A stretch of 64,000 nt of DNA from an uncultured Planctomycetales bacterium (GCA_964474085.1 CAYYRJ010000011.1:11347-75346), one strand, 5' to 3'; numbered from the stretch's first letter, positions 17,338-34,998 are shown. Notes: generated by a model from the sequence alone, not told the origin. Translations and numbers: made by a program.

Positions 17338-17338
17338 T

Positions 17339-18710: not shown

Positions 18711-18720
18711 CCCCTTTGCT

Positions 18721-19470: not shown

Positions 19471-19524
19471 GAAATATTTTTGTCTTTAAAAGATGGGGAA
19501 AATACTACTAAAAATGCGTTATCT

Positions 19525-19560
19525 CGATATATATTTACCGACGGGTGGGGGTGTCAAAGA
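19525..19560 (-). promoter_or_regulatory. Sigma70-like promoter for nrtR: -35 TTGACA (plus 19552-19557), 18-nt spacer, AT-rich -10
   Basis: Reverse strand reads ctcTTTGACAcccccacccgtcggtaaaTATATAT. Same cassette as at int and hsdR. Confidence 0.5.
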
Positions 19561-19721
19561 GGGGATTTTCCCAAAAGATACTACCCCTCACTCTAAGTTT
19601 CTTTTGGGGATATGTTGATACATGGGCCGGGAGTCCCAAAAGGGGGATTTCGGTTTTAGAATCGTTTTGTTAAAGAGGCCTTTATTAAGAAATTTCAGAA
19701 TACTCCAAATTTATTCCACTT

Positions 19722-20165
19722 TTAGCTACCCGGGATCGAAGGTACTGGCTGGCTAACAATCTGCAACGGGAGATTTGCCACTACTTTCCAATTGTCACTA
19801 TCCAAAAAGGAAACTTCAAAAGAATAAAGACCCGCTTGTTTTAAAGTTAAAGGGAAAAGCCTCAGTCTTGATCGTGTTCGGATGTGGGTCTGTAAATTAA
19901 TTTCAATCTGTTGACTGAATAGAACTTCTCTGGTTGGCGAACAAAAATTGACACGTACTGTGCCGCTGACAGGTTGTCCATAATCAGATCTACTCCACAG
20001 ATTAACAAGCTCCAAAGATATTGGCACTACAGAAACCTTATCTGCAGATAATCCTCCCGGGACACCAACACCAATTTGCTCAATAACATTGTGCAAACTC
20101 ATATTATTAGTGTCTTTATCAATAACAGTTCGTTCACATAAAACTGACCAGTTATGTTCTATCAT
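19722..20165 (-). CDS. Hypothetical protein (147 aa), paralogous to 50255-50647
   Basis: Shared pattern SxLC(E/D)...D...SLHNV ... GxYSFxV ... LPLxIV with the 130-aa protein at 50255-50647. Confidence 0.4.
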   Translation of the reverse strand: MIEHNWSVLCERTVIDKDTNNMSLHNVIEQIGVGVPGGLSADKVSVVPISLELVNLWSRSDYGQPVSGTVRVNFCSPTREVLFSQQIEINLQTHIRTRSRLRLFPLTLKQAGLYSFEVSFLDSDNWKVVANLPLQIVSQPVPSIPGS

Positions 20166-20672
20166 TTATTCCTCCATACCTTTTTGAGATATACCACTAA
20201 AATTTTTCATACTAAAAACTGTCCCAAAATTAACAGGATCTAATCCTTGCAATCTATTTTTATAGGGTGATTCAGAATAGATCTCTTCGCTCTTGCTGTT
20301 ATCCATTTTAATAATATACACTTCTCTCACTTGTCCTTTATTTTCCACATATGCATCTAATGCTTTAGATGTAACCTCATTTAGAGAAATTCCTCTCTCT
20401 ATTGCCAAATAATGCGCTTTTCTATGAAGTTCCTCTCCAACACGAACGTTGAAAGATCCCTTAAATGGTTTATCCGGTTCTTTATCTAACTCTTTACATG
20501 TTGATATGTAATCATCAACACTATCTTCAAAGGCTTTTTTTAATTCTTGGACATCAGCCCCCTGATAATCAACCAAATCGCGAATAAACTCTATTTTCCC
20601 ATATAAAATCTCATCTTCGGCGTTATACCTCACCGAGCCATAATATCCTTTATATTCAAACATTTCTTTCAT
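20166..20672 (-). CDS. hicB: HicB-family antitoxin (type II TA)
   Basis: EYKGYYGSVRYNAEDEILYGKIEFIRDLVDYQGADVQELKKAFEDSVDDYISTCKELDKEPDKPFKGSFNVRV matches the HicB N-terminal domain, with a C-terminal RHH-like region (LHRKAHYLAIERGISLNE). Confidence 0.7.
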   Translation of the reverse strand: MKEMFEYKGYYGSVRYNAEDEILYGKIEFIRDLVDYQGADVQELKKAFEDSVDDYISTCKELDKEPDKPFKGSFNVRVGEELHRKAHYLAIERGISLNEVTSKALDAYVENKGQVREVYIIKMDNSKSEEIYSESPYKNRLQGLDPVNFGTVFSMKNFSGISQKGMEE

Positions 20673-20917
20673 ATTAACCCCTCCCTTTCTAAGGCCTCGT
20701 GAACAGACTTAACATGGTGTCCCTTTAAAATGTTTCCTGGGTGCGGCTCATGAAGGAAAATTTTATGATTTGTCGCTTCATTAATAAATTTTCGCCGCGA
20801 TCCCGAGCCAGGAATTAAGTCATAGCCAAAATACCCTAATAGCCGGATTAGTTCATCCCAGGTAAAATCTTTAGGTTTAAGTCTAAACCGTTCAATTAGC
20901 TTCTCACGTGTTGACAT
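20669..20917 (-). CDS. hicA: HicA-family mRNA interferase toxin
   Basis: 82 aa. LIRLLGYFGYDLIPGSGSRRKF...HEPHPGNILKGHHVKSVHEAL matches the HicA/YcfA dsRBD-like fold motifs. Overlaps hicB by 4 nt. Confidence 0.7.
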   Translation of the reverse strand: MSTREKLIERFRLKPKDFTWDELIRLLGYFGYDLIPGSGSRRKFINEATNHKIFLHEPHPGNILKGHHVKSVHEALEREGLI

Positions 20918-21057
20918 TCTCTCTCACAAGGTCTATTGGGAGTATATAACATAAATTACTTTCGTGCAACTAAATTTAGTTGCATTATATCCCAATATTA
21001 AAAATTGTAAAGAAAAATATTTTTAACCCGACCTTCAGGATTTGAACCTGATTAATT

Positions 21058-22164
21058 TTATTTGTAACCCATTGGGAACGATGGGCTATCTGTTGAGGCG
21101 GGTGTCCGATGTGCCATATTTGTGCCAGCTTTCGGAAGATCGCTCAGGTTGAGCGACTGGACCGCACGCTGTTTATGGCTGCAACTGAGGTGGGAATAGC
21201 GCAGAGTCATTTCGATGGTCTTGTGGCCGAGCAGTTCTTTCACGGTAATTAGATCCACCCCGGCCATGACAAGTTGCGAGGCGAAGGTATGTCTAAGATC
21301 ATGAAACCGAAAGTTCTCAATCTTCGCCTTCCCCAAGGCAGTATGAAACGACTTTTTGATATCGTTAAACGGCTTGCCATCAAAGCTGGCAAAAACGTAT
21401 GGGCTTTCTGGATCCTTTCTGACGCGGTAAAGAATATCGCGCACAGCATCATTGATCGGGACCTCACGCTGTTCGCCGTTCTTGGTCTGTAAAATGTGAA
21501 TCAACCCGTGGGCCATATCAACATTATTCCATTTTAAATTAAACACCTCTCCCTTTCGCATCCCGGTGTTAATCGCAAACTGTACGATATCCTTTAAATG
21601 ATCTTCGCAATGGTCGAGTAGCCGCTGAATATCCTCCTTCTCAAGAAACCGGATCCGCTTATTATCCACCGGCAAAAATTTAAAACCATGAACAGGATTG
21701 CGGCCACCAAAATATTCCCACTCAATCGCCTTGTTAAACATATTTCGTAAAATACCCAAATCTTTGTTCACCGTGTTAGGTACGATCGGTTTTTGACTAC
21801 GTGGATTTGTGTGCTGTAGCCGCCAATCAACATATTTCTCGACGTCACGCTGAATGATCTCATGAAGATACTTACTACCAAAATAACTCGTAAGATGACG
21901 GACATTACTGATCGATGACTTATGCCATCCGCGCAAGGTCCTCTTGCAATGCCGCTCGAGATACTCCACAGCGAAATCTTTAAACTTGATCTTCTGCTCG
22001 CGCTTAATATCTAGGTGCTTGTTCTCCGCGACCAGAGTTAATCGCTTTTGAAGAATCTTCAAAGCGATTGCTTTATTAGGCCCGACCATTTCACGTTTGC
22101 GCACTCCTTCTGCGGTGAAATAATCAACACCCCAAACCTTTCCTCTTTGGAATACTCTTGACAT
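21058..22164 (-). CDS. int: Tyrosine-type site-specific integrase (phage integrase family)
   Basis: C-terminal catalytic region with R...HDLRHTFASQL...LGHKTIEMTLRYSH (R-H-R-Y tetrad context). An N-terminal SAM-like/arm-binding region. The 3' end contains the att-like core variant at 21108-21126. Confidence 0.85.
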   Translation of the reverse strand: MSRVFQRGKVWGVDYFTAEGVRKREMVGPNKAIALKILQKRLTLVAENKHLDIKREQKIKFKDFAVEYLERHCKRTLRGWHKSSISNVRHLTSYFGSKYLHEIIQRDVEKYVDWRLQHTNPRSQKPIVPNTVNKDLGILRNMFNKAIEWEYFGGRNPVHGFKFLPVDNKRIRFLEKEDIQRLLDHCEDHLKDIVQFAINTGMRKGEVFNLKWNNVDMAHGLIHILQTKNGEQREVPINDAVRDILYRVRKDPESPYVFASFDGKPFNDIKKSFHTALGKAKIENFRFHDLRHTFASQLVMAGVDLITVKELLGHKTIEMTLRYSHLSCSHKQRAVQSLNLSDLPKAGTNMAHRTPASTDSPSFPMGYK

Positions 22165-22228
22165 AGTTTAATTATAACACCCGATATAATGGGGTGTCAA
22201 TGCTGGCGCACCCTAGTATAATAGGTGC
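22165..22228. promoter_or_regulatory. Divergent promoter region for int and the XRE gene. Leftward: TTGACA (plus 22195-22200), 17 nt, TTATAAT (plus 22171-22177), ending about 7 nt from the int ATG. Rightward: TAGTATAAT 5 nt before the XRE ATG. Both transcripts are probably leaderless.
   Basis: Read directly from the sequence. The -35 context ggggtgtcaa is shared with the nrtR and hsdR promoters. Confidence 0.55.
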
Positions 22229-22441
22229 ATGAAAATTGAATTGCGATTTATTATCAGTCAAAAAATAAAAAAGATTAGATCAAAGCTAAAATTAACCCAA
22301 GAGCAACTTTCCGAAACTTCTGGCGTAGGGTATAAATATCTTCAAATGATTGAAGGGAGCAATCCCCCAAACATATCCTTGAAAACGATCGAAAAACTAG
22401 CCAAAGCCCTCAAGACCACCCCCGCAAACCTTCTTAAATAG
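22229..22441 (+). CDS. XRE-family HTH transcriptional regulator (candidate island master repressor)
   Basis: LKLTQEQLSETSGVGYKYLQMIEGSNPPNISLKTIEKLAKAL is a classic Cro/C1-type HTH. Divergent from int. Confidence 0.7.
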   Translation: MKIELRFIISQKIKKIRSKLKLTQEQLSETSGVGYKYLQMIEGSNPPNISLKTIEKLAKALKTTPANLLK

Positions 22442-22628
22442 CCATCTCTTTCACTTTCCGCCGCTCCAGCCACTCATCGATCTCTGATTTTCGGAATTTC
22501 ACCAGCCGCCCAACCTTGTAATACGGGATCTGCCGGCAATGTGTCCAGCTATAAATCGTACTAGCCCTTACATGTAAATACCGTGTGAGCTCGTGTATTC
22601 CCATCATATTTTCTATCTCATTTTTCAT
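22434..22628 (-). CDS. AlpA/excisionase-like DNA-binding protein
   Basis: 64 aa. ...IHELTRYLHVRASTIYSWTHCRQIPYYKVGRLVKFRKSEIDEWL is an AlpA/Xis-type HTH with its YxxxxxxFPxP-like pattern. Confidence 0.6.
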   Translation of the reverse strand: MKNEIENMMGIHELTRYLHVRASTIYSWTHCRQIPYYKVGRLVKFRKSEIDEWLERRKVKEMAI

Positions 22629-22639
22629 TGTAAATATAT

Positions 22640-23060
22640 GTAATTATTTAAGTTAAAGAAAATATACTAACAAAAATTGCAAGGAAATCGGAAAATCCAA
22701 GTTGTAAGTCGTAAATATATGAAATATAAAGAGTTAAGTTGTTTATGCCTGTAATTAGCACTTAGGTAAATTGCGCCTAAAGCATTGTAAATAAATGCTT
22801 TATGTTTTTACACATAAAATACCCTATATATTTCGCAATGAACACGCTTGTTCTATGGTCGCAATATATCTATCACCATACCAAGATCGCACACTCCTTA
22901 TAAAGAACTACTATTACTACGACGATCCATATCTGCCGGTAGAAGCAGTTTTTGCTGCTTCTACTCAGGCAGACATTATGGCGGAATTGCTCACCCACTC
23001 ATTTACTACGTTAATACGATGACTGTTTTTGAATATAAAAATTGCACACCTCCTCTTTTA
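22640..23060. promoter_or_regulatory. AT-rich non-coding region between the replicase and the excisionase. It carries a perfect 10-bp inverted repeat (gtagaagcag ... ctgcttctac, about 22925-22951) and short direct repeats (tcgcaat x3, tactac x4). Candidate replication origin.
   Basis: Seen in sequence. The position, immediately downstream of the pri-rep gene, matches PICI/satellite ori placement. Confidence 0.3.
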
Positions 23061-24815
23061 CTACAATAAATCTTCTTTATGATTTTCTTGAACTGGACTA
23101 AATAAGCTCACTTGAGAGGCAGCTTTATACAGATGATGTGTCTTGCTGCTTTTATCGACCAAAATAATTTTTGATTCTTCAATTAAACCTCTTAACGTTG
23201 TTTCTGAACAGATTTTTTGATCTTTCGCATATTTGATCAAAACCGGAACCGACACCCGATCCTGCTGAAAATGTTCAAAAAGCTGGACTAGCGTGCGATC
23301 ATCAAATTTCTTAACAAAATCGGTTATAAATTCAAAACAAAAGCTCTCCGGGTTTATTTTTGCTATAAATGGAGAGAACTTTTGTCTATTGCGATTTTTA
23401 TGACAGGAAATGGTAACACTAGAAAATGAACCTTCTAAAGTAATATGGGTATCAAGCCAAGCCTCCCAACGATATGATCCCGCAGCCATCTGACCACCAG
23501 TCTTAAAGTCTCTGGTAGCCTTGCGCCAATGATGAACAACTAAAATAGAGATGCTAAATTTAGCAATAAGCGTATTTAAGTATGCAATCAATTTCCCGAC
23601 CTGCTCTTGATTGCTTTCATCACCTGACCAAGCGTTCCCGAGAGGGTCTAGAATTAAAACATCTACTTCTAACGTCTCAAGCCATCCCTCGATCAACTTT
23701 TTACTCTCGTCATTTAGAAGATCCAGCGCTGGAATATATTTAACATACAAATTTTCAAAACTACCTGTTCTAAAGCCTGACATTTTTTTGAAACGTTCCC
23801 ATAATGCTGATTCGCCCATTTCTAAATCAAGATAAAGCACTTTGGCAGGCTTCACGTCAAACTTACCCATAAATTGCTCGCTCCCACTGGCTATATCTAA
23901 AGCTAAGTTTTGAACAAGAATACTTTTGCCAATATTTGGGGCGGCAGAAACCATTGCTTTTCCTTTTTTCTGAATGATGTCCTGAACATAATATTCAACT
24001 GGCGGAATGTCTTTTTTCAAGAACTCAGGCAAAGACAGAGGCGGGAGAATAAGAAGATTATCGGTAGGGCTGTTTAATTCTTTCTTGTGGTGAATCTCAA
24101 AAATACTTTTAACTATTGTCTCGACTTCAATTCCGGGCAAAGGTGGTTTATTTTTTGCATTAACTGCGTTCACTACCTCTAGGCACTCTTCAAAACATAA
24201 TCCATCGTTAATTAAAGATCCAGCTATTCGGGTTAGGCTGTCATTCCTGCTACCCTCAGTTACGCCATCATAAATGTCTTTTATTGGAACTTTTTCATCT
24301 TCACTATTTGCAAGAATCCATTCGGGAAGATCAGCAAGTTTTACATCATCCAAAGACTTGCCTGCGCACCAATGGTAGCTATTCCCGTTCTCATGAACAC
24401 TTGGCGACGCGACTACATATCCACCATCTCCGCGCAAATCGATCCCGGGCAAATTAGCTTTTTTCTGAAAATTCCTCGTTCCTGTCTTATGCTTGCAAAG
24501 AAGATGATACCCCCGCCCTGTCTTGGCTAACGGAGAATCTGAGACTTTGTAATTTTGTTGCGCTTCTGCAAATGCTTCTGGACTATCAAAATCGATAACA
24601 TCAATTCCGGAAATCTCCCCTGTTACAATGCCGATGTTTGCATTAGGCCATCGCTCAAACCAATCTTTAACCTCACTCTCCGTTGGTTTTCTTTTTTGAA
24701 ACTCCGCCCATGGAACAAGAGGCTCTTTCCCTCTCTCTCTGAGTGGAATTATTGATAACCCTTTTCTTAAATAATTGAGCGCCTGCTCAAGACAATTTGG
24801 AAGTGTTTGTTGCAT
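23061..24815 (-). CDS. Replication protein: an N-terminal bifunctional primase-polymerase (Prim-Pol) domain fused to a P-loop RepA/DnaB-like (AAA_25-type) helicase/ATPase
   Basis: The N-terminus LSIIPLRERGKEPLVPWAEFQKRKPTESEVKDWFERWPNANIGIVTGEISGIDVIDFD is Prim-Pol-like. The central Walker A APNIGKSILVQNLALDIASG and Walker B VLILDPLGNAW are RepA-like. Confidence 0.7.
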   Translation of the reverse strand: MQQTLPNCLEQALNYLRKGLSIIPLRERGKEPLVPWAEFQKRKPTESEVKDWFERWPNANIGIVTGEISGIDVIDFDSPEAFAEAQQNYKVSDSPLAKTGRGYHLLCKHKTGTRNFQKKANLPGIDLRGDGGYVVASPSVHENGNSYHWCAGKSLDDVKLADLPEWILANSEDEKVPIKDIYDGVTEGSRNDSLTRIAGSLINDGLCFEECLEVVNAVNAKNKPPLPGIEVETIVKSIFEIHHKKELNSPTDNLLILPPLSLPEFLKKDIPPVEYYVQDIIQKKGKAMVSAAPNIGKSILVQNLALDIASGSEQFMGKFDVKPAKVLYLDLEMGESALWERFKKMSGFRTGSFENLYVKYIPALDLLNDESKKLIEGWLETLEVDVLILDPLGNAWSGDESNQEQVGKLIAYLNTLIAKFSISILVVHHWRKATRDFKTGGQMAAGSYRWEAWLDTHITLEGSFSSVTISCHKNRNRQKFSPFIAKINPESFCFEFITDFVKKFDDRTLVQLFEHFQQDRVSVPVLIKYAKDQKICSETTLRGLIEESKIILVDKSSKTHHLYKAASQVSLFSPVQENHKEDLL

Positions 24816-25107
24816 TGGAATAGTGTCCCTTCACTTTTTCAGTCAATTCTTCGATTTTCTGGACTACAGCAAATCGCATTACTTCGTAAGTTTCTCGATC
24901 TATCGGGTAAAAAACGTTGATCTCTTTCCCGTTAGGCAAAATTTGTTTTGGGAATAACAATCTAATTTCTCCGTTTGGCTTTGTGTAAACAGCGATAGAG
25001 CTTAAGGCGAGCTTGCTATCGAAGAGAAAACCGGCAAAACCGATAAGACCTTTTGGGGTGGGTTTGATTGGATAAATGCTGATTTCTGTAATTACTGGTT
25101 CTGACAT
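24787..25107 (-). CDS. Hypothetical protein (106 aa)
   Basis: ORF overlapping the 5' end of the replicase gene. No motifs. Confidence 0.3.
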   Translation of the reverse strand: MSEPVITEISIYPIKPTPKGLIGFAGFLFDSKLALSSIAVYTKPNGEIRLLFPKQILPNGKEINVFYPIDRETYEVMRFAVVQKIEELTEKVKGHYSNATNTSKLS

Positions 25108-25209
25108 TTTTTTCTCACTTTTTAAAATAAAAAACCCGTGATTTATTCAGTCACGGGTAAGAATAGCAAACACTTTAGGTTGTTCGCTGTGTGTCACATA
25201 AATTAGTTG

Positions 25210-25806
25210 CTATTTTTTGAAAATAATATTCTTTATGGTTGTCTCCTTGAGATTATAAGGATCTCGCTTGATCGGGACTTCTTCCAAAGACCGCTTTCGT
25301 GTAGTCCACATGCCGGAGAAAGGTTTCTCCGCGACGAATTTGTGCTTAATCTTTTTATATATAATCGCCCCTTTAATACCTTCTGATCGGAGTTGTCGAT
25401 ATGCTTTTTTTATCCACAAATCTTTATTTCGATTGAATTCTCTAATACCGGTAACAGCGCCGTAAGACTTTTTGCTCCGCCTCAATTCCCTTTGACCAAT
25501 ACTCTTTGGACGGTAAGTAAAATATTTATACAGACAATCTACATCACTAATTTTCATTCTTACCTGTCTTTGGTTTATCTCAGATGGATAAGCAATTACA
25601 GTGTATCTTCGCTTTTCAATATCCATCATCCATGCCATAATTCCGGTATCTCTATCTTTGATAAGATTTGTTACATAATGGGCAGGGAATGGTTTTGCCA
25701 AAGGAATCCCATCCTTAAAACCAAATTTCTTTAATAGTTTTTTCCCAGCTTTTAAATATTCAGCTTTGGTTTGATAAACGTCCTTGATCTTCTTAAAACC
25801 ACCCAC
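25210..25806 (-). CDS. Hypothetical basic protein (198 aa)
   Basis: Lys/Arg-rich ORF. No recognised motifs. Confidence 0.35.
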   Translation of the reverse strand: MGGFKKIKDVYQTKAEYLKAGKKLLKKFGFKDGIPLAKPFPAHYVTNLIKDRDTGIMAWMMDIEKRRYTVIAYPSEINQRQVRMKISDVDCLYKYFTYRPKSIGQRELRRSKKSYGAVTGIREFNRNKDLWIKKAYRQLRSEGIKGAIIYKKIKHKFVAEKPFSGMWTTRKRSLEEVPIKRDPYNLKETTIKNIIFKK

Positions 25807-25839
25807 ATCTTCCTCACATTTTCAGTAAAAGTGCAGCCT

Positions 25840-26793
25840 TCAGCTCGAACCCGAAACGGTCGGAAATGTCCCGGTCTCTGTTTTTCCTAAAATCTCAAGT
25901 GGTTGAGGAGTTTGTAGGTCTCGCCAAAATTCCATTGCATCCGCAGTACGATACGAAACTCTACGTCGCAGTGCTTTCTCCAAGGCAAAACTATATGGCG
26001 ACTGAAGCTGCAAAGCCATCTCACGCGGTTTACCACTCAAAATCTCCTCCTGAGTAAACCTCAATTCTTTTGAGCATGCCAATTCAAGTAATAGAAGCCC
26101 TGCATGGTATATATCAATACGATGATCTATGGGGCCAAACTCATTAGGATTCAAAACTTCCGGGGGAACCATCCATTGCGCCCTCGTATTTCTTGCATCA
26201 ACCTCATGAAATAATTTTGCAACACCAAGATCACCAAGTTTAAACTGCATTATTTCCTGATTTGTTGGGACCATTTCATCTTTTACCAAAGCAGTAAATA
26301 CATTGGCGGAATGAATATCCTGATGAGCATAATTGTTAATATGAAGATAATGAACGACTTGCAAAAGTGATCTGGCTATGGGCATTAACCATGCTTGCCC
26401 AGCAAAATTCGGAATTGCAAATAGCTGTTTGACCGAACAGTAACATCGTTCGGTTATGATATAAAATGTATCTCTGTATTCAAACGCATCATAAACAAAA
26501 GTAATATGTGGATTACGGAGCTGTAAAAGTTTAATAAGCTCAGCTTGCGCATCTGCTTTTACTTTTTCATAAGCTCTCCCTGTCGGTTTTAAAACTTTAG
26601 CCGCTAGGTCATTTCCCCAAACATCTTTGCATGAATAAACAACCCCAAAATTCCCCTCACCAATTTTCTCCCCCATAGTATAAGTATTATTTGTCGCTAA
26701 ACTGGTTATGACTTCGCCCACAGATGGAGGAACCATCATCCTAACCTGGGGAATACTTTGGGGTGAAGCTGGCTCTGGTAACTGCTGAGTCAT
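25840..26793 (-). CDS. Atypical eukaryotic-like Ser/Thr protein kinase domain protein, last gene of the hsdRMS operon
   Basis: Gly-rich loop GEGNFGVVYS, VAIK-like LAAKVLK, catalytic loop HQDIHSANVF (Asp retained, Lys replaced by His), DFG-like DLGVAKL, and APE-like PPEVL. Confidence 0.6.
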   Translation of the reverse strand: MTQQLPEPASPQSIPQVRMMVPPSVGEVITSLATNNTYTMGEKIGEGNFGVVYSCKDVWGNDLAAKVLKPTGRAYEKVKADAQAELIKLLQLRNPHITFVYDAFEYRDTFYIITERCYCSVKQLFAIPNFAGQAWLMPIARSLLQVVHYLHINNYAHQDIHSANVFTALVKDEMVPTNQEIMQFKLGDLGVAKLFHEVDARNTRAQWMVPPEVLNPNEFGPIDHRIDIYHAGLLLLELACSKELRFTQEEILSGKPREMALQLQSPYSFALEKALRRRVSYRTADAMEFWRDLQTPQPLEILGKTETGTFPTVSGSS

Positions 26794-26799
26794 TTTTTA

Positions 26800-27981
26800 T
26801 CAATTCTCGCTAAACGCCTGATGAAGCAACGATTGAAATAAATGCTCGGCTTGGCGTAAGGATTCTGCCTGTACATAGTTAAAACGCTCCTGTTTTGTAA
26901 AAACATCAACAAACTTTTTCTGAAGTGATAGCGATGGAACGATGATCGGGATGTCAGCTAAATCTTTATAATAGATCGCAAATACACTCGTTGTTCCAGA
27001 TTTAATTCGTTCCAAATTTTGTTTCAGCCAGGGAGATTGGAATAAACCAATCATAAATTCTGGCGTTAACATCGACTTAAAACGTATTCGCATAATATTG
27101 TTATTAAATAATCGCACCCCATGCCGTTGGGTATAAAGAGCTGTCTTCCCGACCAATTCTTTAGAATTACGCGTATTAAATAAAAAATCTCCAAATTGAA
27201 GACTAAAGCTACGAACTTCGGTGTCTGTTGCCTCAACTCGCTTTAATTTATTTAAATCTAATGTGCCGTCACCAATAATTGAATCCATCCTCAAATATTC
27301 ATAAGGATAGCTGTTATTCATTTCAACTGCCCCACGTACAAGTCCAAGCTGATTAGAATCAACCATATCTCCAAATGCGACTTGTTCGTAGCTGGCTGCG
27401 GTTTCCTTCAAATCACCAAACATCTCAACAAATACAGCGGGAAGGAATGAATCGCTCATTTCAAGCACATATCTGCGGATACGACGAAGGCGGTCGGCTT
27501 GATCCAATACTTTTACAATCTGTTTTTGCTTGGAAAGAGGTGGATAATAAATACTGCAGTCTAAAAGACGTTCATTATTTAAAATTGGAACAAGAGCCTG
27601 ATTTGCGTTTCTTTCAATTCGTGGCTTATTAAATAAAAACCAATAATAAGCAAAATCACTATCAATTTCATCATTAAAATTTAGTGCTGTAATTTGTTGA
27701 TTTGAGGAAGATTCTCGACGCAATATCCCGACTCTTCCAATTTCTCCAATACATGTAACTAATAAGGTGCCCCGCTGAAGCACTTTAGCTTTACCTTCTT
27801 CTACCGCTTTAGCTGTGATTCGACGCGAAGCAACTAATAGATTCTTAGAATTACCAATATCTGATGGAGTATACCAATCAATATCTCCATTAAAATACGC
27901 TGGCTCTTTCGTTGGAGGTGTTGTACCTGTTTGCACTCCAGTGACAACTTCAGCTAATGGACAAACAGTCCAATTCTTCAT
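26800..27981 (-). CDS. hsdS: Type I restriction-modification specificity subunit HsdS
   Basis: 393 aa with two target-recognition-domain halves separated by conserved helical spacers. Overlaps hsdM by 4 nt. Confidence 0.75.
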   Translation of the reverse strand: MKNWTVCPLAEVVTGVQTGTTPPTKEPAYFNGDIDWYTPSDIGNSKNLLVASRRITAKAVEEGKAKVLQRGTLLVTCIGEIGRVGILRRESSSNQQITALNFNDEIDSDFAYYWFLFNKPRIERNANQALVPILNNERLLDCSIYYPPLSKQKQIVKVLDQADRLRRIRRYVLEMSDSFLPAVFVEMFGDLKETAASYEQVAFGDMVDSNQLGLVRGAVEMNNSYPYEYLRMDSIIGDGTLDLNKLKRVEATDTEVRSFSLQFGDFLFNTRNSKELVGKTALYTQRHGVRLFNNNIMRIRFKSMLTPEFMIGLFQSPWLKQNLERIKSGTTSVFAIYYKDLADIPIIVPSLSLQKKFVDVFTKQERFNYVQAESLRQAEHLFQSLLHQAFSEN

Positions 27982-29684
27982 ATCAATTCTTTCACTAACT
28001 TAATACTCTGATTAGCCACCATATCTAATGATTGAAGCCGCTCAAGAGTAACCCGTGGTTTCTCATAATAAATTTCATCCTGCTCAATCAAACGATACCT
28101 ACTGGATGACAGATCATATTTATTCGTTTTTAATTTATCCTTGGCTACCCAAAACTGTCGCGTGAGCTGGTTAATCTCTTTTTGAAGAGGTTCAATTTCT
28201 TTATGCAGATCATTCAATTTAGACGTGTCTGCGTCTAACGCTAACCGTGCCTTTTCATTACCATCATCCGCAATCACCTGTTCAAAAGTTAAACGATTCA
28301 CTTCTGCTAAAAGCACAAGGCGTTTCTTTTTTAAAGGGGTAATGCTTTCTTGAAGTTCTGCGAGCCTTTTTTCTCTTACCTGTGAAAATTTTTTATCAAA
28401 ACGGTTTCTCCAACACTCAAGAAGATCGGGAAGATCACTCTCATCAACTTTTTGACGCTTATCATCCAGCGAGAAGCCATCATGTTCCATATCATAAAAC
28501 CAAACTTTTTCCGTTGATGCCCCTCTGGTAAAAAACAACACAGCCGTTGATACTCCTGCATAAGGCCTGAATACACCAGACGGCATTGACACAACTCCAT
28601 CTAAACGGTTTTCCTCAATCAGTTTCTTTCTGATCTCCAAATGCGCCTGATTGGAGCCAAATAAAACACCATCTGGCACAATAACAGCTGCTCGGCCACC
28701 ATTCTCTAAAAGTCTTAGAAATAAATGCAAAAACAGCAGTTCCGTCTTTTTACATTTAGTCGGAAGAGTAGGATTAACATCAGATGAGTCTATTGCACCT
28801 TTAAAGGGTGGATTGGCTAAAATAATGTCGTACTTTCTTTCTTCGTTATATGCCTTTGATAGAGCGTCAGTATGTTTGAAGTTCGGCTGGGCGATACCAT
28901 GTAAAATAAGATTCATAGAACCGATGCGAAGCATTGTCATACCTGCGTCATTGTCATACGCAGTGATTGCTTCTTTTTGTAAGAATTCACTTTGTTCTTT
29001 GGTTAATTTGTCGCCGACTAATTTGTGTGGGAAACCATCTTCATCATAAGTAAGCAATTTAGGATCGGTATTCTTTTCTAAAATGTATTGATAGAAATTA
29101 ACCGGGAAACCACATGTCCCGGCCGCTGGGTCGCACATCTTCTCACCCGGGCGAGGATCGATCATCTGCACCATCATACGAATAATATGGCGCGGTGTTC
29201 TAAACTGGCCATTAGTACCTGCTATATTGAGCTTACTTAAAAGGTATTCATAAAGATCTCCCTGCACATCCTGATTTTGATTTGAAATTTGCATTTCATC
29301 AATCAGGCGACATGCTTCTATCAAAAGACTTGGGCGTTTAATCTTAAACTCAGCATTTTCCATCTGATCAGCAAATGATCCGCCTTCGCCTCCCAATTCT
29401 TTAATAAAAGGAAACACCTTTTCCTTAACTATCTTTAGAGCTTTTTCAGCATCTAAATTTGACCAATACGACCAACGCAATTCCTTGTCTTTAAAAATTG
29501 GCTCATATTTAAGTTTGCGTAACTTCGAGACTCGTTCTCGATCTTCTTCTGCTTCTTCCAATCGCTTTAGAAACAACAAAAAAGAAAGCTGCTCAATGGC
29601 ATCAAGTGGATTAGCTAATCCACCCGACCATAATTTGTCCCATAAAGAATCGACCTTTGACCGTAAATTTGAATCAGTTAGCAT
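27978..29684 (-). CDS. hsdM: Type I restriction-modification N6-adenine DNA methyltransferase subunit HsdM
   Basis: HsdM N-terminal domain (RSKVDSLWDKLWSGGLANPLDAIEQLSFLLFLKRL). SAM motif DPAAGTCGF. Catalytic motif IV ILANPPFKG. Confidence 0.9.
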   Translation of the reverse strand: MLTDSNLRSKVDSLWDKLWSGGLANPLDAIEQLSFLLFLKRLEEAEEDRERVSKLRKLKYEPIFKDKELRWSYWSNLDAEKALKIVKEKVFPFIKELGGEGGSFADQMENAEFKIKRPSLLIEACRLIDEMQISNQNQDVQGDLYEYLLSKLNIAGTNGQFRTPRHIIRMMVQMIDPRPGEKMCDPAAGTCGFPVNFYQYILEKNTDPKLLTYDEDGFPHKLVGDKLTKEQSEFLQKEAITAYDNDAGMTMLRIGSMNLILHGIAQPNFKHTDALSKAYNEERKYDIILANPPFKGAIDSSDVNPTLPTKCKKTELLFLHLFLRLLENGGRAAVIVPDGVLFGSNQAHLEIRKKLIEENRLDGVVSMPSGVFRPYAGVSTAVLFFTRGASTEKVWFYDMEHDGFSLDDKRQKVDESDLPDLLECWRNRFDKKFSQVREKRLAELQESITPLKKKRLVLLAEVNRLTFEQVIADDGNEKARLALDADTSKLNDLHKEIEPLQKEINQLTRQFWVAKDKLKTNKYDLSSSRYRLIEQDEIYYEKPRVTLERLQSLDMVANQSIKLVKELI

Positions 29685-29685
29685 T

Positions 29686-32442
29686 TTAAGCCTCTATCTT
29701 TTCAGTGAACTCCAACAAATCACGCACATCATTGGGAGTAAAAAGTTTATCGACAGCGTTTCTACCAAAATTGGTTAACGGCGCTTCATAAAGATCCGCC
29801 TCACTAAGTTTTCGTTTTTGTAAAAATACACTCTGGACAGCACGCAAAAATAAGATTTGATCAGCGTTATAATGATGTTCAGTAATAAAATTCTCGAAAC
29901 AACGCCCCACAACAGCAGCATACTCGGGAATAGTATCGAGCGATAATATATGGCGGATAAACCCTAAGAAGCTATTAACCTTTAAGCCATACGCACGCTT
30001 AATATTCAAAGGACTCAGTTGGATATCTCCTCCCGATAAACCCTCGTGCAAAGCCCGCTCTAAAGAAATCAAATCTTCTTCACTTACTTCCCTGCCTTGA
30101 CGAATCGCTTCAATAGCAGGATGGTTTTCTATAATCGAAAGAACTTTTGCTTCGACCCGCTTTCTATACTCTTCAACATAAATCTGCTCACCACCCTCGC
30201 CAATTGAGATAAGGCCGCGCGTATCAATAAAATCAGGGAGGTCGATTGAAATAAAAGTGTTTTGTCGGTTCCGACGATTACGCATAACCCCTGCCAAATC
30301 TGTGATGATCCGACGTAATTCTTTGGGTGACGCATTTGCCAATTTATCGGATAAACATAATTCAGCCGACTTTGAATACTTTTCATCTTTTAAAATATAT
30401 TCGGGCAAAAGACTGACATCTTCGGCAATTGAACGCAATAATTCAGGGGATACTTTACCAGTGAATACTTGATAACGAAGCCGTTCGACTTTGCTGGTAA
30501 ATGTTTCGGCCGCAACATCCACCTCCCCAACAAATCTTAACAACGGCCCAATTCTAAGACGCAAGAATTCAACTTTATCATTAGTTAATAATGTCCAGTA
30601 TTCATCACCCCAAACATGTTCAATCTCTACCCAGACCCTTCTTACTGAAAAGCAATCCGTCGGGATACGATTCACCATGGCCCGCAAATCTGATATGACC
30701 TGTGCATAATCCTCAGCCTGTATTGATTTATCCAGCGATTCTAAAATTTTTAATCTGGTGTTAAAAATTGACACCAGAACAGGGATTACCGGAGAGGCTC
30801 CGCCTTTAGGGTCTTTTTGAAAATCATTCTGCCAGAAATCGATAATTTTAAATTCTGTTTTCTTGCCATCTGGCAATCTTTCGGAATACATACAAACAGC
30901 ATTGCTTCTTGTGCCGCGCCCTATCATCTGCCACATTTTGATTTGCGATTGAACGGGTTTCATGAAAACCAAGTTCACCACCTCGGGGACATCAATGCCG
31001 GTGTCGAGCATATCAACAGAGATAGCAATCCTTGGCAAATTGTTCTTTTTGAATTTTGTAATTAGTCCATCCCCATAACTACCGTCACGGACACGTTCTG
31101 TGCTAGATGTTATAACCTGCACTAAATCTAATTGCTGAGGATACATTTCTTCAAAAATTTCACGGATTCGCTCTGCGTGTTCCTTGGTCATGGCAAAAAT
31201 AATCGTCTTTCCCGGAAGCTGACCAGATTGATCTTTTAAACACGCTTCCCATATCTCTTCCCATTGCTTACGAAGGGTGTCTTTGTTACTGACCTCCACT
31301 TCAATATCTGTTCCGGAATAATCGATGTCGTCCGGGTCAATGCCTTGAGCGATCAAAGCATTTTTGTCCTCTTCGCTTAATTCAATGCCTTTAATTCCTT
31401 TACGCTGAAACCCTGTCTGGGCTTGATATAAACTAAAATTGACGAGATATTCTTCCCTTACAGCAGTTTTATAGTCATATAAAAAAGTCGGAGTGCTATT
31501 TTGGCAACCAAAAACCCCGAAAGTATCTCTATCTATAAAAGTGGCTGGTGTGGCTGTAAGGCCGACCATACGTGCGTCAAAATAATCCATGACTTCTGAG
31601 AAACGATGAAAGATTGACCGATGGGCTTCATCAAAAATAATCAGATCAAAGAAACCCGGGCTAAACTTTGTATAGCAAACATTCATCGTTTGTTCAGTCG
31701 CCACAAACAAACGCTTTGTCGTATCGATGTTACGGGTATAAATGCGATCTCGAGGCTCATTAGGTAAATGCGCTTTGAACCCATCAGATAACGCCTGCTC
31801 AACCAGCGCATCACGATCAGCTAAAAAGAGAACATTTCTCGCTTGGTTCGTTTTTAAAAATATATCAATCAATGCCATTGTTGTACGCGTTTTACCCGTT
31901 CCTGTTGCCATTACCAAAAGCGCTCGTCGCCTGCCTTCTTCAAAAACTTCACAAACCCTGCGCACAGCTTCCTGCTGATAAGGGCGATTAGCAATAGTCC
32001 TATTGATCAAAGTTTCATTTAGTGATTGCTGATTTTGACGGAGGAAAAGAAGGCGGGTTAAATCGTCTGGACTAAAAAATCCGGCAACCAATCTCGGATG
32101 GGCAAGACCAATTTCCCAGAAATAAGTATTAAGACCATTCGACATAAATCCGAATGGCGTAAATTCTTGATTCTTACTGATGTAATTTAAATAATATCGT
32201 AACTGTTCATCTGCTTCCCTCGGGCTACGGCTCATTTTCTTGGCTTCTACAACAGCCAAGACATTGTTACGGGAGTCGTACAAGCAATAATCGGTCACGC
32301 CATTCCATGGTTCTTTGTCATAGCCGTCAACAGGCACTTCCCTGCGGACTTTTGTGAGATCGTTTAAATCCCATCCAGCTGATGTTAAAAGCGGATCAAT
32401 TATTTTGATACGTGTTTTTGCTTCATTTAATTCATCTGGCAT
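29686..32442 (-). CDS. hsdR: Type I restriction enzyme endonuclease/translocase subunit HsdR
   Basis: N-terminal HsdR_N nuclease region (KTRIKIIDPLLTSAGWD). SF2 helicase motifs MATGTGKTRT (I), IIFDEAHRS (II) and a QxxGR-type motif VI region. Confidence 0.9.
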   Translation of the reverse strand: MPDELNEAKTRIKIIDPLLTSAGWDLNDLTKVRREVPVDGYDKEPWNGVTDYCLYDSRNNVLAVVEAKKMSRSPREADEQLRYYLNYISKNQEFTPFGFMSNGLNTYFWEIGLAHPRLVAGFFSPDDLTRLLFLRQNQQSLNETLINRTIANRPYQQEAVRRVCEVFEEGRRRALLVMATGTGKTRTTMALIDIFLKTNQARNVLFLADRDALVEQALSDGFKAHLPNEPRDRIYTRNIDTTKRLFVATEQTMNVCYTKFSPGFFDLIIFDEAHRSIFHRFSEVMDYFDARMVGLTATPATFIDRDTFGVFGCQNSTPTFLYDYKTAVREEYLVNFSLYQAQTGFQRKGIKGIELSEEDKNALIAQGIDPDDIDYSGTDIEVEVSNKDTLRKQWEEIWEACLKDQSGQLPGKTIIFAMTKEHAERIREIFEEMYPQQLDLVQVITSSTERVRDGSYGDGLITKFKKNNLPRIAISVDMLDTGIDVPEVVNLVFMKPVQSQIKMWQMIGRGTRSNAVCMYSERLPDGKKTEFKIIDFWQNDFQKDPKGGASPVIPVLVSIFNTRLKILESLDKSIQAEDYAQVISDLRAMVNRIPTDCFSVRRVWVEIEHVWGDEYWTLLTNDKVEFLRLRIGPLLRFVGEVDVAAETFTSKVERLRYQVFTGKVSPELLRSIAEDVSLLPEYILKDEKYSKSAELCLSDKLANASPKELRRIITDLAGVMRNRRNRQNTFISIDLPDFIDTRGLISIGEGGEQIYVEEYRKRVEAKVLSIIENHPAIEAIRQGREVSEEDLISLERALHEGLSGGDIQLSPLNIKRAYGLKVNSFLGFIRHILSLDTIPEYAAVVGRCFENFITEHHYNADQILFLRAVQSVFLQKRKLSEADLYEAPLTNFGRNAVDKLFTPNDVRDLLEFTEKIEA

Positions 32443-32689
32443 TGGGGTATATGCTCTCTGATCTTTAACTTACTACGGGCGATGTATTCGCCGATTTATC
32501 ATGATACCTTCCGGGTCATCCACTGCCACCAACTTTAAAGCCCGGTTACCTATATCCGGGCCAAGTATTCAACGGTGTATGTATCTGCTGAGATCATTAA
32601 AATTCCGCTATGGGCTATTCAAAATATTCAGTATTGTAACATTGTTACCTTTTTCCTGCCACCATTTCCATCCGATAAGTCTATTGCCT

Positions 32690-32722
32690 CATTATATATA
32701 AACCACCGTACAGGGGTGTCAA
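32690..32722 (-). promoter_or_regulatory. Sigma70-like promoter for the hsdRMS-kinase operon: TTGACA (plus 32717-32722), about 17-nt spacer, ATATATAAT
   Basis: Reverse strand reads ctTTGACAcccctgtacggtggtttATATATAATgag. Shares the ggggtgtcaa -35 context with the nrtR and int promoters. Confidence 0.5.
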
Positions 32723-32748
32723 AGGGAGGATTTTGGTATGCCAAAAAT

Positions 32749-32767
32749 GTGCCAGATTTGTGCCAAC
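32749..32767. repeat. Right copy of the perfect 19-bp direct repeat tgtgccagatttgtgccaa (candidate att core). It is embedded in three 11-bp periods beginning TGCCA.
   Basis: Identical to 9874-9892. The reverse-strand translation of the flank again gives an integrase-tail-like VGTNLAH. Confidence 0.75.
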
Positions 32768-32834
32768 TTTTCATCAAAAATGGCCTAAATTCATCAAAAT
32801 TGGTAGTAGTTGGAGATTTGCAGAAGGCAAACAA

Positions 32835-32870
32835 AAACCCAGAATCCTCGTCGGAAACTGGGTTTTTATT
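32835..32870 (+). terminator. Possible rho-independent terminator: aacccag, 15-nt loop, ctgggtt, then TTTATTT
   Basis: Stem-loop plus T-run seen in sequence. Lies between the two islands. Confidence 0.3.
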
Positions 32871-32917
32871 TGGTTGCGGGGACAGGATTTGAACCTGTGA
32901 CCTTCAGGTTATGAGCC
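32871..32917 (-). repeat. 47-nt partial copy of the tRNA-Met 3' half (anticodon loop to CCA), the left att direct repeat of the tRNA-integrated island
   Basis: tggttgcggggacaggatttgaacctgtgaccttcaggttatgagcc is identical to 44556-44602 inside the intact tRNA. Confidence 0.85.
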
Positions 32918-33036
32918 GCCGAAAAGAAATAATTTCAACCCGATTTTCCCGTTTTTTACCGTTGGAGTTAGGCAATACTGTAAGCCTTCCTCCTTTCTGG
33001 GTTTTGACTGAATTAATATTACCTACGCACAAATAA

Positions 33037-34998
33037 TTACTGTCGAATTCTAGACGCATTTTGACAACTTGCCTTATAATTACCCCATAACTTTTTCAAA
33101 GGCCAAAAAATAAAATATAATATTGGTAGCGCAGCTAAAACATCACGAATTATTTGCTGATAATCCCCACAATTAAATATTTTACAATAACCCCACGCTA
33201 CCAACAAGGAACCCATCCCACAAATAGGCAATGTCTTAAGCAGTCCCCGCAGCAAAGCACCTAAAGCATCCCTTTTAATTTTAGCCGCCTTAAAATTGTT
33301 TAATTCTTTTTCTCGTTCTACTGATTTAATTCGTTCTTGATTAGTTTCTTCTTCCGCTCGCTTGATTCTTTCTTTAGCATCAGACAACTGCTCAGAAACC
33401 TCTATAGTGCTTGCTTGATACAATCTATTAATCCTCAAGGCCAAATTGCTGTCGTGCGCTTTTCCTTCTAATCTCGCCTTTGCAATCTCTTTAACGAGTT
33501 TCTTAACTTCCTCCGAAGGTAAGTCAGCGGCCCTTTCATTAATTTTATCCAACAATTGTAAATCCTGCAAAATATAAGTACTGCTTGAAGGCAAACATTC
33601 ATTGAGTAATAGCTTGGATAATAATGGGGCAAAATTGGTAGCATCAGAAATTGGTTCCGAATTATTTAGGGCAAGAATCTCTATCAATACCGAAACAGAT
33701 AGCAGTTTGGGCAACTCATGGTGCGGAGTTTGTTCTAACACAGATGCTTGCAAAGACCTATCCAAACTTAGTATCCAAGCTTTCTCATTTTTCCCCCTTA
33801 AGTAATCAACAGTATGAATTAAACAAGTATCGTGATTTAACGCCGCCTGCCCTTTTTTCCCTTTCCATTTCGCACGAAATTTTAAGGCAAATTTTTGTAT
33901 TTGATTTTTTAAATGTTCATCCTGCTCAGATTTTATTTGAGTATCTAGAAATTCTTTATCGTCTTCCAAAACTATATTAAGCCCGTCGGGCAATGTCCGA
34001 GGTATATTTAAAAGAGAATCGAAGAATCTGTTATAATCTTCTTCATTTTTACAACCTCTATCTCGTGCAGTCGCAATAAAATCGTCTCTGACATCCTGAA
34101 TCACTTCATCATCAAAAGCTTTAATTACATGAATCGCATCCCCTCGTTTTGCGTTCAAAGCTCGGGCGTATTCCTCTGTCGTGCAATGCAGATAAATTAA
34201 TTTTGAGTTAAGAAACTTGAATGCACCTTCTAAGGCCTTGATTGATTGCCACAATCTACTACTTTCCAGCGATAAAGCGAACAAAACATTTGTGTCAAAA
34301 ATGAATGTTGAATTACTTAATTCTTCAATTGTAATAGGGTCTATCCCAATGTCAGCAGCCACTAAACGTGCTGAAAACATCGCCTGACTCATCAAAAATA
34401 AATATTGTTGGTCTCGAATATTATCACTTGAGAGGAAACTTACGAAACCAGCAACTAACGCCTGCTTATGCTGCTCTAGTTTATTATTCTTTATGGAATT
34501 GGAAAGCAACTGTTCAATCGTCTGTGAGGAAGCCGCAATTCTTCTATTACCTTTACTCGATATTTTAATCCATTCATCACAATAAAATCCCAGGAAATCC
34601 GCAGAAGACTCTCTGAACCACATTTTAAGTATCTTTTTCGGGAGGGTGGCTGGGAAATGGCGCTCTAAAACTTCCCGCAACAGGCCTCTTTCTGTATTGA
34701 TTTCCCTACTAATGTCTTTGCGACTATTATTCTCTAACTGCCATGTCTTCCCATTCGTTCTAACTTTGCCAGATTGTTGTAAAAATTGAAGCCCGTCAAT
34801 AACCAATTCCGATGAGACACTTTTGTTCCCAATCATTTTTGCCGACTCAGACACCAACTGTTGCACCTCAACGGGCGATTCTATGGAATACATAACTTTT
34901 GCTATCAGCTCAGCAAAAGCTAAAGTTTTAAGTGGTTTTGCAGAAGTGCCATATTTCAAATTTACAGTTACAAGCTGTCTCGTGTTAAACTGCATCAT
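33037..34998 (-). CDS. Large hypothetical protein (653 aa) with an internal PIN-like motif and C-terminal transmembrane helices
   Basis: Internal FIFDTNVLFALSLESS resembles a PIN-domain first acidic motif. C-terminal hydrophobic segments (LPICGMGSLLVAWGY...ALPILYFIFWPL). Confidence 0.35.
   Translation of the reverse strand: MMQFNTRQLVTVNLKYGTSAKPLKTLAFAELIAKVMYSIESPVEVQQLVSESAKMIGNKSVSSELVIDGLQFLQQSGKVRTNGKTWQLENNSRKDISREINTERGLLREVLERHFPATLPKKILKMWFRESSADFLGFYCDEWIKISSKGNRRIAASSQTIEQLLSNSIKNNKLEQHKQALVAGFVSFLSSDNIRDQQYLFLMSQAMFSARLVAADIGIDPITIEELSNSTFIFDTNVLFALSLESSRLWQSIKALEGAFKFLNSKLIYLHCTTEEYARALNAKRGDAIHVIKAFDDEVIQDVRDDFIATARDRGCKNEEDYNRFFDSLLNIPRTLPDGLNIVLEDDKEFLDTQIKSEQDEHLKNQIQKFALKFRAKWKGKKGQAALNHDTCLIHTVDYLRGKNEKAWILSLDRSLQASVLEQTPHHELPKLLSVSVLIEILALNNSEPISDATNFAPLLSKLLLNECLPSSSTYILQDLQLLDKINERAADLPSEEVKKLVKEIAKARLEGKAHDSNLALRINRLYQASTIEVSEQLSDAKERIKRAEEETNQERIKSVEREKELNNFKAAKIKRDALGALLRGLLKTLPICGMGSLLVAWGYCKIFNCGDYQQIIRDVLAALPILYFIFWPLKKLWGNYKASCQNASRIRQ

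Follow-up and report, generated by a model that had tools for sequence, protein, structure and literature searches.

A tRNA-Met-associated island with its own replication module and Type I restriction–modification cargo: a probable site-specific integrative element of Omnitrophota-type genomes

A complete Type I restriction–modification (R-M) system lies within a 64,000-nucleotide stretch of DNA from an uncultured Planctomycetales bacterium (GCA_964474085.1 CAYYRJ010000011.1:11347-75346; this whole stretch is hereafter the window), and the question raised by this locus is what kind of element carries it. An earlier note on the same DNA took the carrier for a phage satellite of the type of phage-inducible chromosomal islands (PICIs) and P4. 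According to the present analysis, the carrier is probably a site-specific integrative element of 11.9 kb that looks intact, has its own replication module and belongs to an undescribed modular family in Omnitrophota-type metagenome-assembled genomes (MAGs). We consider it likely to very likely that the island is mobile, or was so until recently, as an integrative element equipped with a replication module. The island is the middle unit of a tandem island array downstream of an initiator-like tRNA-Met. It resembles a phage satellite, and the satellite reading is partly supported.

The mobile island is a discrete stretch of 11,862 bp (window 21036-32897), with a perfect 15-bp direct repeat at both ends. 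The repeat, CAGGATTTGAACCTG, is a T-arm stretch of tRNA-Met and occurs three times in the window, compared with 0.00 copies expected by chance; the copy next to the integrase gene therefore defines the island as a single unit standing in tandem with a separate island, island A. The ends of 21058 and 32767 assigned in the earlier note are accordingly replaced by 21036 and 32897. A hidden tRNA beside the integrase gene was ruled out, since a search with ARAGORN and Rfam at E ≤ 10 returned only the tRNA-Met listed in Table 1. We take this target to be of a near-initiator type (1:72 mismatch, sequence close to that of E. coli tRNA-fMet).

Independent evidence for these ends comes from the paired motif GTGCCANATTTGTGCCA, of which the window contains exactly three copies where 0.02 would be expected: in the 3′ end of the integrase gene, near the far end of the island (Table 1) and in a decayed integrase remnant (9875-9891). 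In two related elements, L010 and L013, the counterpart TGGACAC-N4-TGGACAC is found as a pair at two matching places, 120–121 nt inside the far end (118 nt in the island) and about 90 nt ahead of the int-proximal repeat. As read from the sequence, the TGGCAC-N5-TGGCAC motif is placed in the way that arm-type integrase sites are placed in an attP. The far end is also shared with a sister element: contig L104, 12331 nt in total, starts exactly at the 15-nt core and is then 80.7% identical to window 32897-32520 over 383 nt.

The genes and sites that the earlier note had read inside the island were recovered in the same positions and with strong domain matches; these are the integrase, XRE and AlpA-like genes, the divergent promoters, the Prim-Pol/RepA-helicase replicase, the AT-rich ori-like region and the cargo. 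The catalytic R...HxxR...H...Y residues of the tyrosine integrase are intact. This integrase is 88% identical to that of L104 and 45–52% identical to the integrases of L005, L007, L010, L011 and L013. A gene of AlpA type is kept between the replicase and integrase genes in L007, L010, L011, L013 and L104, and the XRE-family repressor has a 48% identical homolog in the same antisense position in L104. The promoters of the integrase and XRE genes, scored by matches to a sigma-70-like consensus, are the best two sites across the 12-kb region: P_int (TTGACA-18-TATAAT) matches at 12 of 12 positions and P_xre at 10 of 12. Each gene has its ATG 7 nt beyond its own −10 box, and both transcripts appear leaderless, as the earlier note had suggested. 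The spacer of P_int contains the palindrome ACACCC-N9-GGGTGT; the same promoter design, with a palindrome in the P_int spacer, is repeated in L104.

The replicase combines an N-terminal primase-polymerase part with a helicase half that matches RSF1010 RepA (PDB 1g8y) and is not of the D5/SF3 type. Across the aligned homologs, the Prim-Pol DxD residues and those of Walker A and Walker B do not vary. The AAA_25 helicase half is 55–72% identical to proteins (P0007-P0058) with Toprim/zf-CHC2, DUF3854 or DnaB_N N-termini, and the Prim-Pol half recurs in fusion with D5-type/DUF3987 helicases. Since each half is met with other partner domains, the primase and helicase domains have been swapped and extensively shuffled. 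Between the replicase and AlpA-type genes there is a candidate origin of replication (ori) or operator region, which contains three ATATATTTACA repeats (22630-22640, 22711-22721 and 22787-22797) and a hairpin with a perfect 10-bp stem (22939-22964) between two copies of CGTAGTAA (22914-22921 and 23003-23010). In about half of ten relatives examined, a hairpin with short flanking repeats, or a tandem repeat, is located just after the replicase gene. The repeat sequence differs between elements, as expected if iterons or operators are each adapted to the protein of the same element. A reading frame in this gap, orf75 (22795-23022, plus strand), has no homologs in any locus or library and is probably not a gene.

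Two small genes lie between the cargo and the replicase gene. The earlier note regarded them as unknowns and as candidates for packaging redirection. They proved to be conserved backbone genes rather than cargo, recurring upstream of other replicases, and neither gives any hint of packaging: one is SpoVG-like and the other belongs to a family with no recognisable fold. The SpoVG-like gene is conserved upstream of differing replicases in L002, L007, L010 and L100. The second gene, orf198, has homologs in L100 and L102, again upstream of the replicase; its family is small, with ten representatives among 1.8 billion proteins. No match to orf198 was found in Pfam, PHROGs or PADLOC, and a PDB sequence-profile search was also negative. 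A structure model built from 11 sequences (predicted local distance difference test score, pLDDT, 72.6) showed no significant fold match, and a model from four sequences was unusable (pLDDT 50.8).

The cargo consists of a Type I R-M system, complete according to Pfam and PADLOC (HsdR, HsdM and HsdS are all full length), and a Ser/Thr kinase. The four genes are packed in an operon-like manner, with a gap of only 6 nt between hsdS and the kinase gene. The kinase keeps the G-loop, the AxK lysine, HQD...N and DLG, and this non-RD kinase is probably active. Its matches to kinase models would assign it to defence kinases of the PD-T4-6/mad6 type; the mad6 match covers the kinase domain only. The island was not found to contain a MADS system: the mad2 and mad5 models give hsdM and hsdS much lower scores than the classical Type I models do, and PADLOC detected in the island no further genes of the multi-gene mad1-8 set. 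A role of the kinase as a dedicated Type I partner was likewise rejected. Among 26 close homologs from JGI metagenome contigs (L123-L148; 58–93% identity), which almost never stand beside hsd genes, a single one lies near an hsdM-like fragment. Judging by gene context, the kinase is an independent single-gene module and not an R-M partner. The kinase family is widespread and well conserved, and its members sometimes adjoin integrase or HTH-SocA genes.

All genes of the island are on the minus strand except the XRE gene. In the direction of transcription, the cargo is therefore followed by orf198, the SpoVG-like gene, the replicase gene, the ori-like gap, alpA and int. With the control sites included, the backbone runs from the cargo promoter and cargo through orf198, the SpoVG-like gene, the replicase gene, the iteron–hairpin gap, the HTH_17 gene and the antisense XRE gene to int and att.

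Genomic relatives of the island were found in Omnitrophota and 'Planctomycetia' MAGs. The closest is L104, a sister element with the same tRNA-Met P′ arm and an AlpA-type protein 61% identical to that of the island. Its replicase is different (DUF3854 and D5_N/Pox_D5), as is its Type I R-M system (HsdM of 756 aa, HsdR of 1069 aa); a near-identical integrase combined with another replicase and another R-M system indicates recent module exchange. In L100 the integrase is 48% identical, whereas orf198 (69%) and the SpoVG-like protein (52%) are found upstream of a DUF3854-VapE replicase, and the cargo includes a KAP NTPase. L102, with a 26% identical integrase, has an orf198-like gene, a bare AAA_25 helicase, HTH_17 and int, with SIR2 and DUF7380 as cargo. 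Further relatives carry a PLD nuclease, an SMC/AAA_21 ATPase, GmrSD with a C5 methylase, and a PDDEXK nuclease, so that the cargo in relatives is mostly defence-like. The conserved order of the backbone and the changing replicase and cargo point to a module that integrates, brings genes for its own replication and carries exchangeable defence cargo.

The integrases of L005, L010 and L013 are 49–52% identical to that of the island, and their genes lie directly upstream of intact tRNA-Arg, tRNA-Pro and tRNA-Pro, respectively. Direct repeats of 40–42 nt, corresponding to the 5′ part of the tRNA up to the anticodon loop, bound these three elements, which are 9.3–11.6 kb in size. Since the tRNA 5′ end is duplicated, the element supplies the 5′ half of the tRNA, the reverse of the usual 3′-end arrangement. 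In four other relatives (L003, L002, L004 and L006), a TerS-like gene is located immediately downstream of the replicase gene; in L003, no open reading frame (ORF) is big enough for a TerL, portal or capsid protein, and these small elements as a group showed none of such a size. Judging from these matches, the four are candidates for PICI-like membership of this family, and the occurrence of a TerS-like gene in several relatives implies that the family spans satellite-like and cargo-type forms, as tycheposons do. The 11–12-kb homolog contigs themselves were considered as possible excised circles and rejected as such: L015 holds a chromosomal enolase gene and L002 ends within a serine integrase gene.

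These TerS-like genes bear on the proposal that the island is a true phage satellite, induced by a helper phage, replicated and packaged in helper capsids, with its defence cargo directed against the helper's competitors. We regard this as a tenable but tentative reading. The core of integrase, AlpA-type protein and primase–helicase is present, and the sizes of the island (11.9 kb) and of its relatives (9.3–11.6 kb) are near the median of about 10 kb given for P4 and for PICIs (PMC10085698). Like PICIs, the island is a site-specific insertion of about this size with an integrase, an AlpA-type regulator, a primase–replicase with an ori-like region and accessory defence genes, without structural genes, and some of its relatives carry terS downstream of rep (PMC10085698). 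Unlike them, it has no terS or capsid-morphogenesis gene, its helicase is RepA/DnaB-like and not D5/SF3, its host is of Omnitrophota type, and it has neither a known helper phage nor close relatives in IMG/VR. The canonical PICI/P4 layout claimed by the earlier note was not borne out: in PICIs, int diverges from alpA, pri-rep and terS, whereas here rep, alpA and int are co-directional and int is last. Three of the five PICI core components were found (integrase, alpA/stl-type regulation and primase–replicase), with terS and a capsid or packaging gene absent; the authors of SatelliteFinder set this 3/5-component 'Type C' class aside as ambiguous (PMC10085698). The absence of terS, capsid and ppi homologs, noted earlier, was upheld in Pfam, PHROGs and PADLOC. 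Pfam and PHROGs likewise yielded no cpm, sid or psu homolog in the island, no psu-delta-sid operon, epsilon or alpha primase among its ORFs, and no other capsid-morphogenesis or packaging-redirection gene.

Two other groups of satellites offer precedents. PICMIs, the minimalist phage-inducible islands in chromosomes of Vibrionaceae, show that int, alpA and a primase with defence cargo are enough for a real satellite without packaging genes (PMC10803314). The island resembles them in a core cut to int, AlpA (PF12728) and primase, in the lack of packaging-redirection genes and in its defence cargo. PICMIs, however, integrate beside fis and have a DUF3987/DUF5906 primase, whereas the island is at tRNA-Met with Prim-Pol/AAA_25; the replicase of the island is not PF13148 or PF19263, although sister L104 does have DUF5906/D5_N. 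The island is also about twice the size of PICMIs, and its phage dependence is a candidate property only. P4-like satellites with an integrase, an AlpA-like protein, a primase–helicase and a complete hsdRMS cargo at defence hotspots are already documented (PMC13612085); the island differs from them in lacking the psu-delta-sid operon, epsilon and an alpha-type (Toprim/D5) primase. Of the earlier satellite reading, there remain the discrete tRNA-associated island with int, repressor, AlpA-type gene, primase–helicase, ori-like region and defence cargo, and the TerS-like gene in elements of replicase relatives; the layout, the 3/5 core and the type of helicase do not agree with it.

A complete excision and replication module without any hijacking gene is also what would be expected of a phage-independent cargo shuttle, that is, an integrative plasmid or cargo-type tycheposon-like element that excises and replicates itself and spreads by transformation, vesicles or generalised transduction. 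This explanation is possible but doubtful. Integrative and conjugative elements of actinomycetes (AICEs) such as pSAM2 and pMEA300 are 10–20-kb, tRNA-integrated, autonomously replicating elements in which xis and int have the replication gene directly upstream; Prim-Pol proteins occur in some of them, and integration in tandem at a single tRNA has been described (PMC2440964). The rep-xis-int order beside a tRNA and the tandem arrangement of the island match them. AICEs encode FtsK-like Tra and spread genes and are confined to Actinobacteria, whereas the island has none of these genes; no FtsK-like Tra domain was found by Pfam in any of its ORFs. Tycheposons of Prochlorococcus (bioRxiv 10.1101/2020.12.28.424599) are tRNA-flanked, with partial tRNA repeats, tandem island-building arrays and decayed remnants; they possess a tyrosine (rarely serine) recombinase, xis and primase/helicase, and include both cargo-type and terS-bearing PICI-like forms on one backbone. 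The window contains such flanks, namely a full tRNA-Met, 48-nt and 15-nt partial copies and an int remnant at 9828-9890. The likeness is one of layout and gene content: tycheposons belong to another phylum and carry nutrient-acquisition rather than defence cargo, and the backbone genes orf198 and the SpoVG-like gene have not been reported for them. A neighbouring segment, segment C, holds NAD-salvage and not defence genes, in line with the shuttle. Against it, the TerS-like genes in relatives point to some phage link in the family, and the island encodes no transfer function of any kind.

The earlier note had reckoned with a degraded prophage or ICE (integrative and conjugative element) remnant, should the replicase group with plasmid or ICE primases and conjugation or phage structural genes turn up nearby. 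A plasmid-type helicase (that of RSF1010 RepA) was indeed found, and Prim-Pol/AAA_25 replicases occur in real phages at 25–28% identity. No structural, lysis, relaxase or type IV secretion gene was detected in the island, its flanks or about 15 related elements, and no FtsK-type, capsid, portal, tail or TerL match in the island or its relatives; among these searches, the PHROG survey of 115 ORFs refers to the best 25 of 72 families. Together with the compact, size-conserved organisation bounded by att sites, this makes such a remnant highly improbable, and the explanation was rejected.

Several observations weigh against an intact mobile element of the kind proposed here. The outer flank next to int does not run on as the acceptor end of tRNA-Met, unlike the prediction for a simple insertion. 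All four junctions compared (window site 1, the remnant at 9792-9816, L104 and L015) read TCAGG-N7-CCTGAAGG(T/G)C, with conserved stems and varying loops, and this sequence is as similar to the anticodon arm and variable loop of tRNA-Met as to its T-arm. Two crossover registers are thus possible, the T-arm (15 of 15 exact) and the anticodon arm (18 of 21), and the arm-site distances clearly favour neither; since CAGG/CCTG is common to the anticodon and T stems, the att register is ambiguous. An excised or circular form was not found, nor was an empty site; exact-protein look-ups (DivIC, HicA and a cluster mate of the replicase) gave the same arrangement only, and a search of IMG/VR with the tRNA 3′ end and terminator of the P′ arm had no match. 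Neither IMG/VR nor phage records contain a close relative of the replicase or integrase: IMG/VR matches of the replicase have 25–29% overall identity (37–45% in the best segment), the best integrase match has 38%, and the best full-length replicase matches in phage and plasmid records, such as Roseobacter phage CRP-810, have 25–28%. The ori is assigned by position and by repeat patterns that differ between elements. Neither terS nor any recognisable hijacking gene was found in the island with Pfam and PHROGs.

Some of these observations are what an immobilised remnant would show, that is, a formerly mobile island now fixed within a defence island. To the mismatching outer flank are added the same-type integrase remnant at 9828-9890, which means that decay does occur at the tRNA-Met locus, and the presence of the identical integrated arrangement in three assemblies. 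We nevertheless consider a remnant unlikely. Every backbone ORF is intact and catalytic residues are kept; no mismatch is seen in the 15-bp cores or in either arm site, and the promoters are at consensus; L104 represents a recent module exchange at 88% integrase identity. A site-specific integrative element with its own replication module is thus retained as the probable nature of the island.

The neighbouring segments have comparable sizes, the three tandem units measuring 11.2, 11.9 and 11.7 kb. Island A, on the tRNA side, encodes a XerC/D-like integrase of its own (43545-44444) and lacks a replicase. Its cargo is of defence type and includes GmrSD_N+HNH, AbiGi-like, AAA_17, GNAT (with a weak EVE match) and ASCH proteins, a small resolvase, HTH+SocA/Panacea and three unknown proteins of 653, 276 and 124 aa. 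Segment C, on the other side, encodes hicAB, NrtR, Band_7 and an NAD-salvage set (PncB, PncA, PnuC and NadR-like); its integrase remnant comprises 21 aa of the C-terminus and is of the same type as the island integrase. The hicAB toxin–antitoxin pair (20166-21011) lies directly outside the island, with a promoter TTTACA-16-TATAAT (21011->20984) and, just downstream of it, a 20-bp palindrome TGCAACTAAATTTAGTTGCA (20965-20984). An 86-nt non-coding block at 9690-9775 is 79% identical to 19572-19657. A promoter-like block, AAAATCC.C.CTTTGACACCCC...TATA, is found at 19523-19569 and 32688-32734 and twice in L104, where one copy is just outside the int-proximal junction. These repeated blocks may represent a promoter of the P′ arm or native flanking DNA.

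Table 1. Positions of the features of the island, its surroundings and related elements (window coordinates unless a contig is named)
Feature	Position	Strand	Description
int-proximal att core CAGGATTTGAACCTG	21036-21050		Within hairpin TCAGG-N7-CCTGA, 8 nt past int stop codon
Tyrosine integrase (int), 368 aa	21058-22164	-	Phage_integrase 2.8e-39; phrog_1 6.7e-80
Arm-type integrase site, P arm, GTGCCATATTTGTGCCA	21111-21127		Putative; within int 3′ coding end
P_int and P_xre, back to back	22171-22222		P_int 22200->22171; P_xre 22194-22222; -35 hexamer in common
XRE-family repressor, 70 aa	22229-22441	+	HTH_3 3.4e-10; antisense between alpA and int
HTH_17/AlpA-type excisionase-regulator, 64 aa	22434-22628	-	HTH_17 4.4e-12; Phage_AlpA weak, 0.0056; phrog_66 excisionase 5e-9
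Candidate ori/operator region (rep-alpA gap)	22629-23060		Non-coding; AT-rich, 23-30% GC
Replicase, 584 aa	23061-24815	-	Prim-Pol 6.4e-33; PriCT_1 3.4e-10; AAA_25 3e-26 (RepA/DnaB-like helicase)
SpoVG-like backbone gene, 106 aa	24787-25107	-	SpoVG 6.5e-6, under Pfam cutoff; overlaps rep start
orf198, backbone gene, 198 aa	25210-25806	-	Basic protein; small unknown family
Ser/Thr kinase, 317 aa	25840-26793	-	Non-RD (HQD...N, DLG); Pkinase 1.7e-27; PADLOC mad6 4.4e-34, PD-T4-6 5.7e-20
hsdS	26800-27981	-	Methylase_S, two target-recognition domains; Specificity_I 2.3e-78
hsdM	27978-29684	-	N6_Mtase 5e-54 and HsdM_N; MTase_I 1.8e-159
hsdR	29686-32442	-	ResIII, Helicase_C, HSDR_N, EcoEI_R_C; REase_I 7.7e-117
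Promoter-like block, cargo end, AAAATCCTCCCTTTGACACCCC...TATATAAT	32688-32734	-	74% identical to 19523-19569; homologous to block in L104 P′ arm
Arm-type integrase site, P′ arm, GTGCCAGATTTGTGCCA	32749-32765		Putative; 118 nt from core
Terminator hairpin AAAAACCCAG...CTGGGTTTTT	32834-32867	-	Past tRNA 3′ end, within P′ arm; conserved at L104 start
Far-end att core	32883-32897		Inside 48-nt tRNA-Met 3′ fragment 32870-32917
Island A	32870-44602		Separate; bounded by perfect 48-nt repeat of tRNA-Met 3′ half (copy 32870-32917)
tRNA-Met	44556-44632	-	Sole tRNA in window
Segment C, 11.2 kb	9792-21035		Possible decayed third element; int remnant, att-like hairpin and arm-type motif on far side
Related element, L005	3160-13603		tRNA 5′ 40-42 nt duplicated
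Related element, L010	1217-10599		tRNA 5′ 40-42 nt duplicated
Related element, L013	1831-13473		tRNA 5′ 40-42 nt duplicated
TerS-like gene, L003	3965-4480		Terminase_2, 30.3 bits vs cutoff 26.1 (over Pfam threshold)
TerS-like gene, L002	5436-5807		phrog_2538, 5e-14
TerS-like gene, L004	11585-11968		phrog_2538, 2e-9
TerS-like gene, L006	6224-6556		phrog_51, 5e-8, N-terminus only

A possible course of events can be proposed from the arrangement of these features. The XRE gene would be read from its leaderless promoter, which has the −35 hexamer in common with the divergent P_int, the latter bearing the palindrome in its spacer. The repressor would silence int and probably also the rep-alpA transcript, which runs antisense through the XRE gene. 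Upon induction, the HTH_17/AlpA-type protein and Int may recombine the two 15-bp cores, using the paired arm-type sites TGGCAC-N5-TGGCAC in both arms, and release a circle. Its predicted attP is ...TTACAAATAAAATTAAT-CAGGTTCAAATCCTG-TCCCCGCAACCAAATAAAAACCCAG..., where the P′ arm would carry the tRNA 3′ end and its terminator; in the chromosome, excision would join the body of tRNA-Met to the DNA left of position 21036. The Prim-Pol/RepA-type helicase would replicate the circle from the iteron–hairpin region just downstream of rep, and the SpoVG-like protein and orf198 may serve as nucleic-acid-binding accessory or regulatory factors. Helper-phage packaging, as in PICMIs and PICIs, seems the most plausible route of cell-to-cell transfer, because related elements carry TerS-like genes and sizes cluster at 9–12 kb. 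Homology suggests that the integrated element would protect the host by two independent modules, Type I R-M and the PD-T4-6/mad6-like kinase.

This is no new kind of system: islands that integrate, replicate and bring defence genes along are on record, and Type I R-M on satellites is among the documented cases. What deserves most attention is the family with its exchangeable modules, together with the way in which a defence island is built up in tandem at tRNA-Met, and not the R-M cargo itself; if the family is real and mobile, the locus would also offer testable parts, namely the att cores, the arm-type sites, the leaderless divergent promoter switch and the candidate ori. A wider reading, which we put forward with considerable reserve, is that of an undescribed family of 9–12-kb, tRNA-targeting, self-replicating, satellite-like elements in Omnitrophota and neighbouring lineages, a counterpart of tycheposons in an uncultivated phylum. 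If this were true, a single int/alpA/arm-site backbone would be combined with at least four interchangeable replicase types, with terS in some members (the satellite form) and defence or metabolic cargo in others, and most related integrases would replace the 5′ half of the target tRNA instead of the usual 3′ half. The host defence island would then be built by one insertion after another at the initiator-like tRNA-Met, in units of about 11–12 kb, and the size of the unit would be set by the capacity of the helper capsid. If the family is real and mobile, defence islands in a little-known uncultivated phylum would arise as integrative elements of unit size are stacked at a single tRNA gene, R-M systems and replicases would be exchanged between near-identical integration modules, and the continuum of PICIs, PICMIs and tycheposons would reach Omnitrophota.

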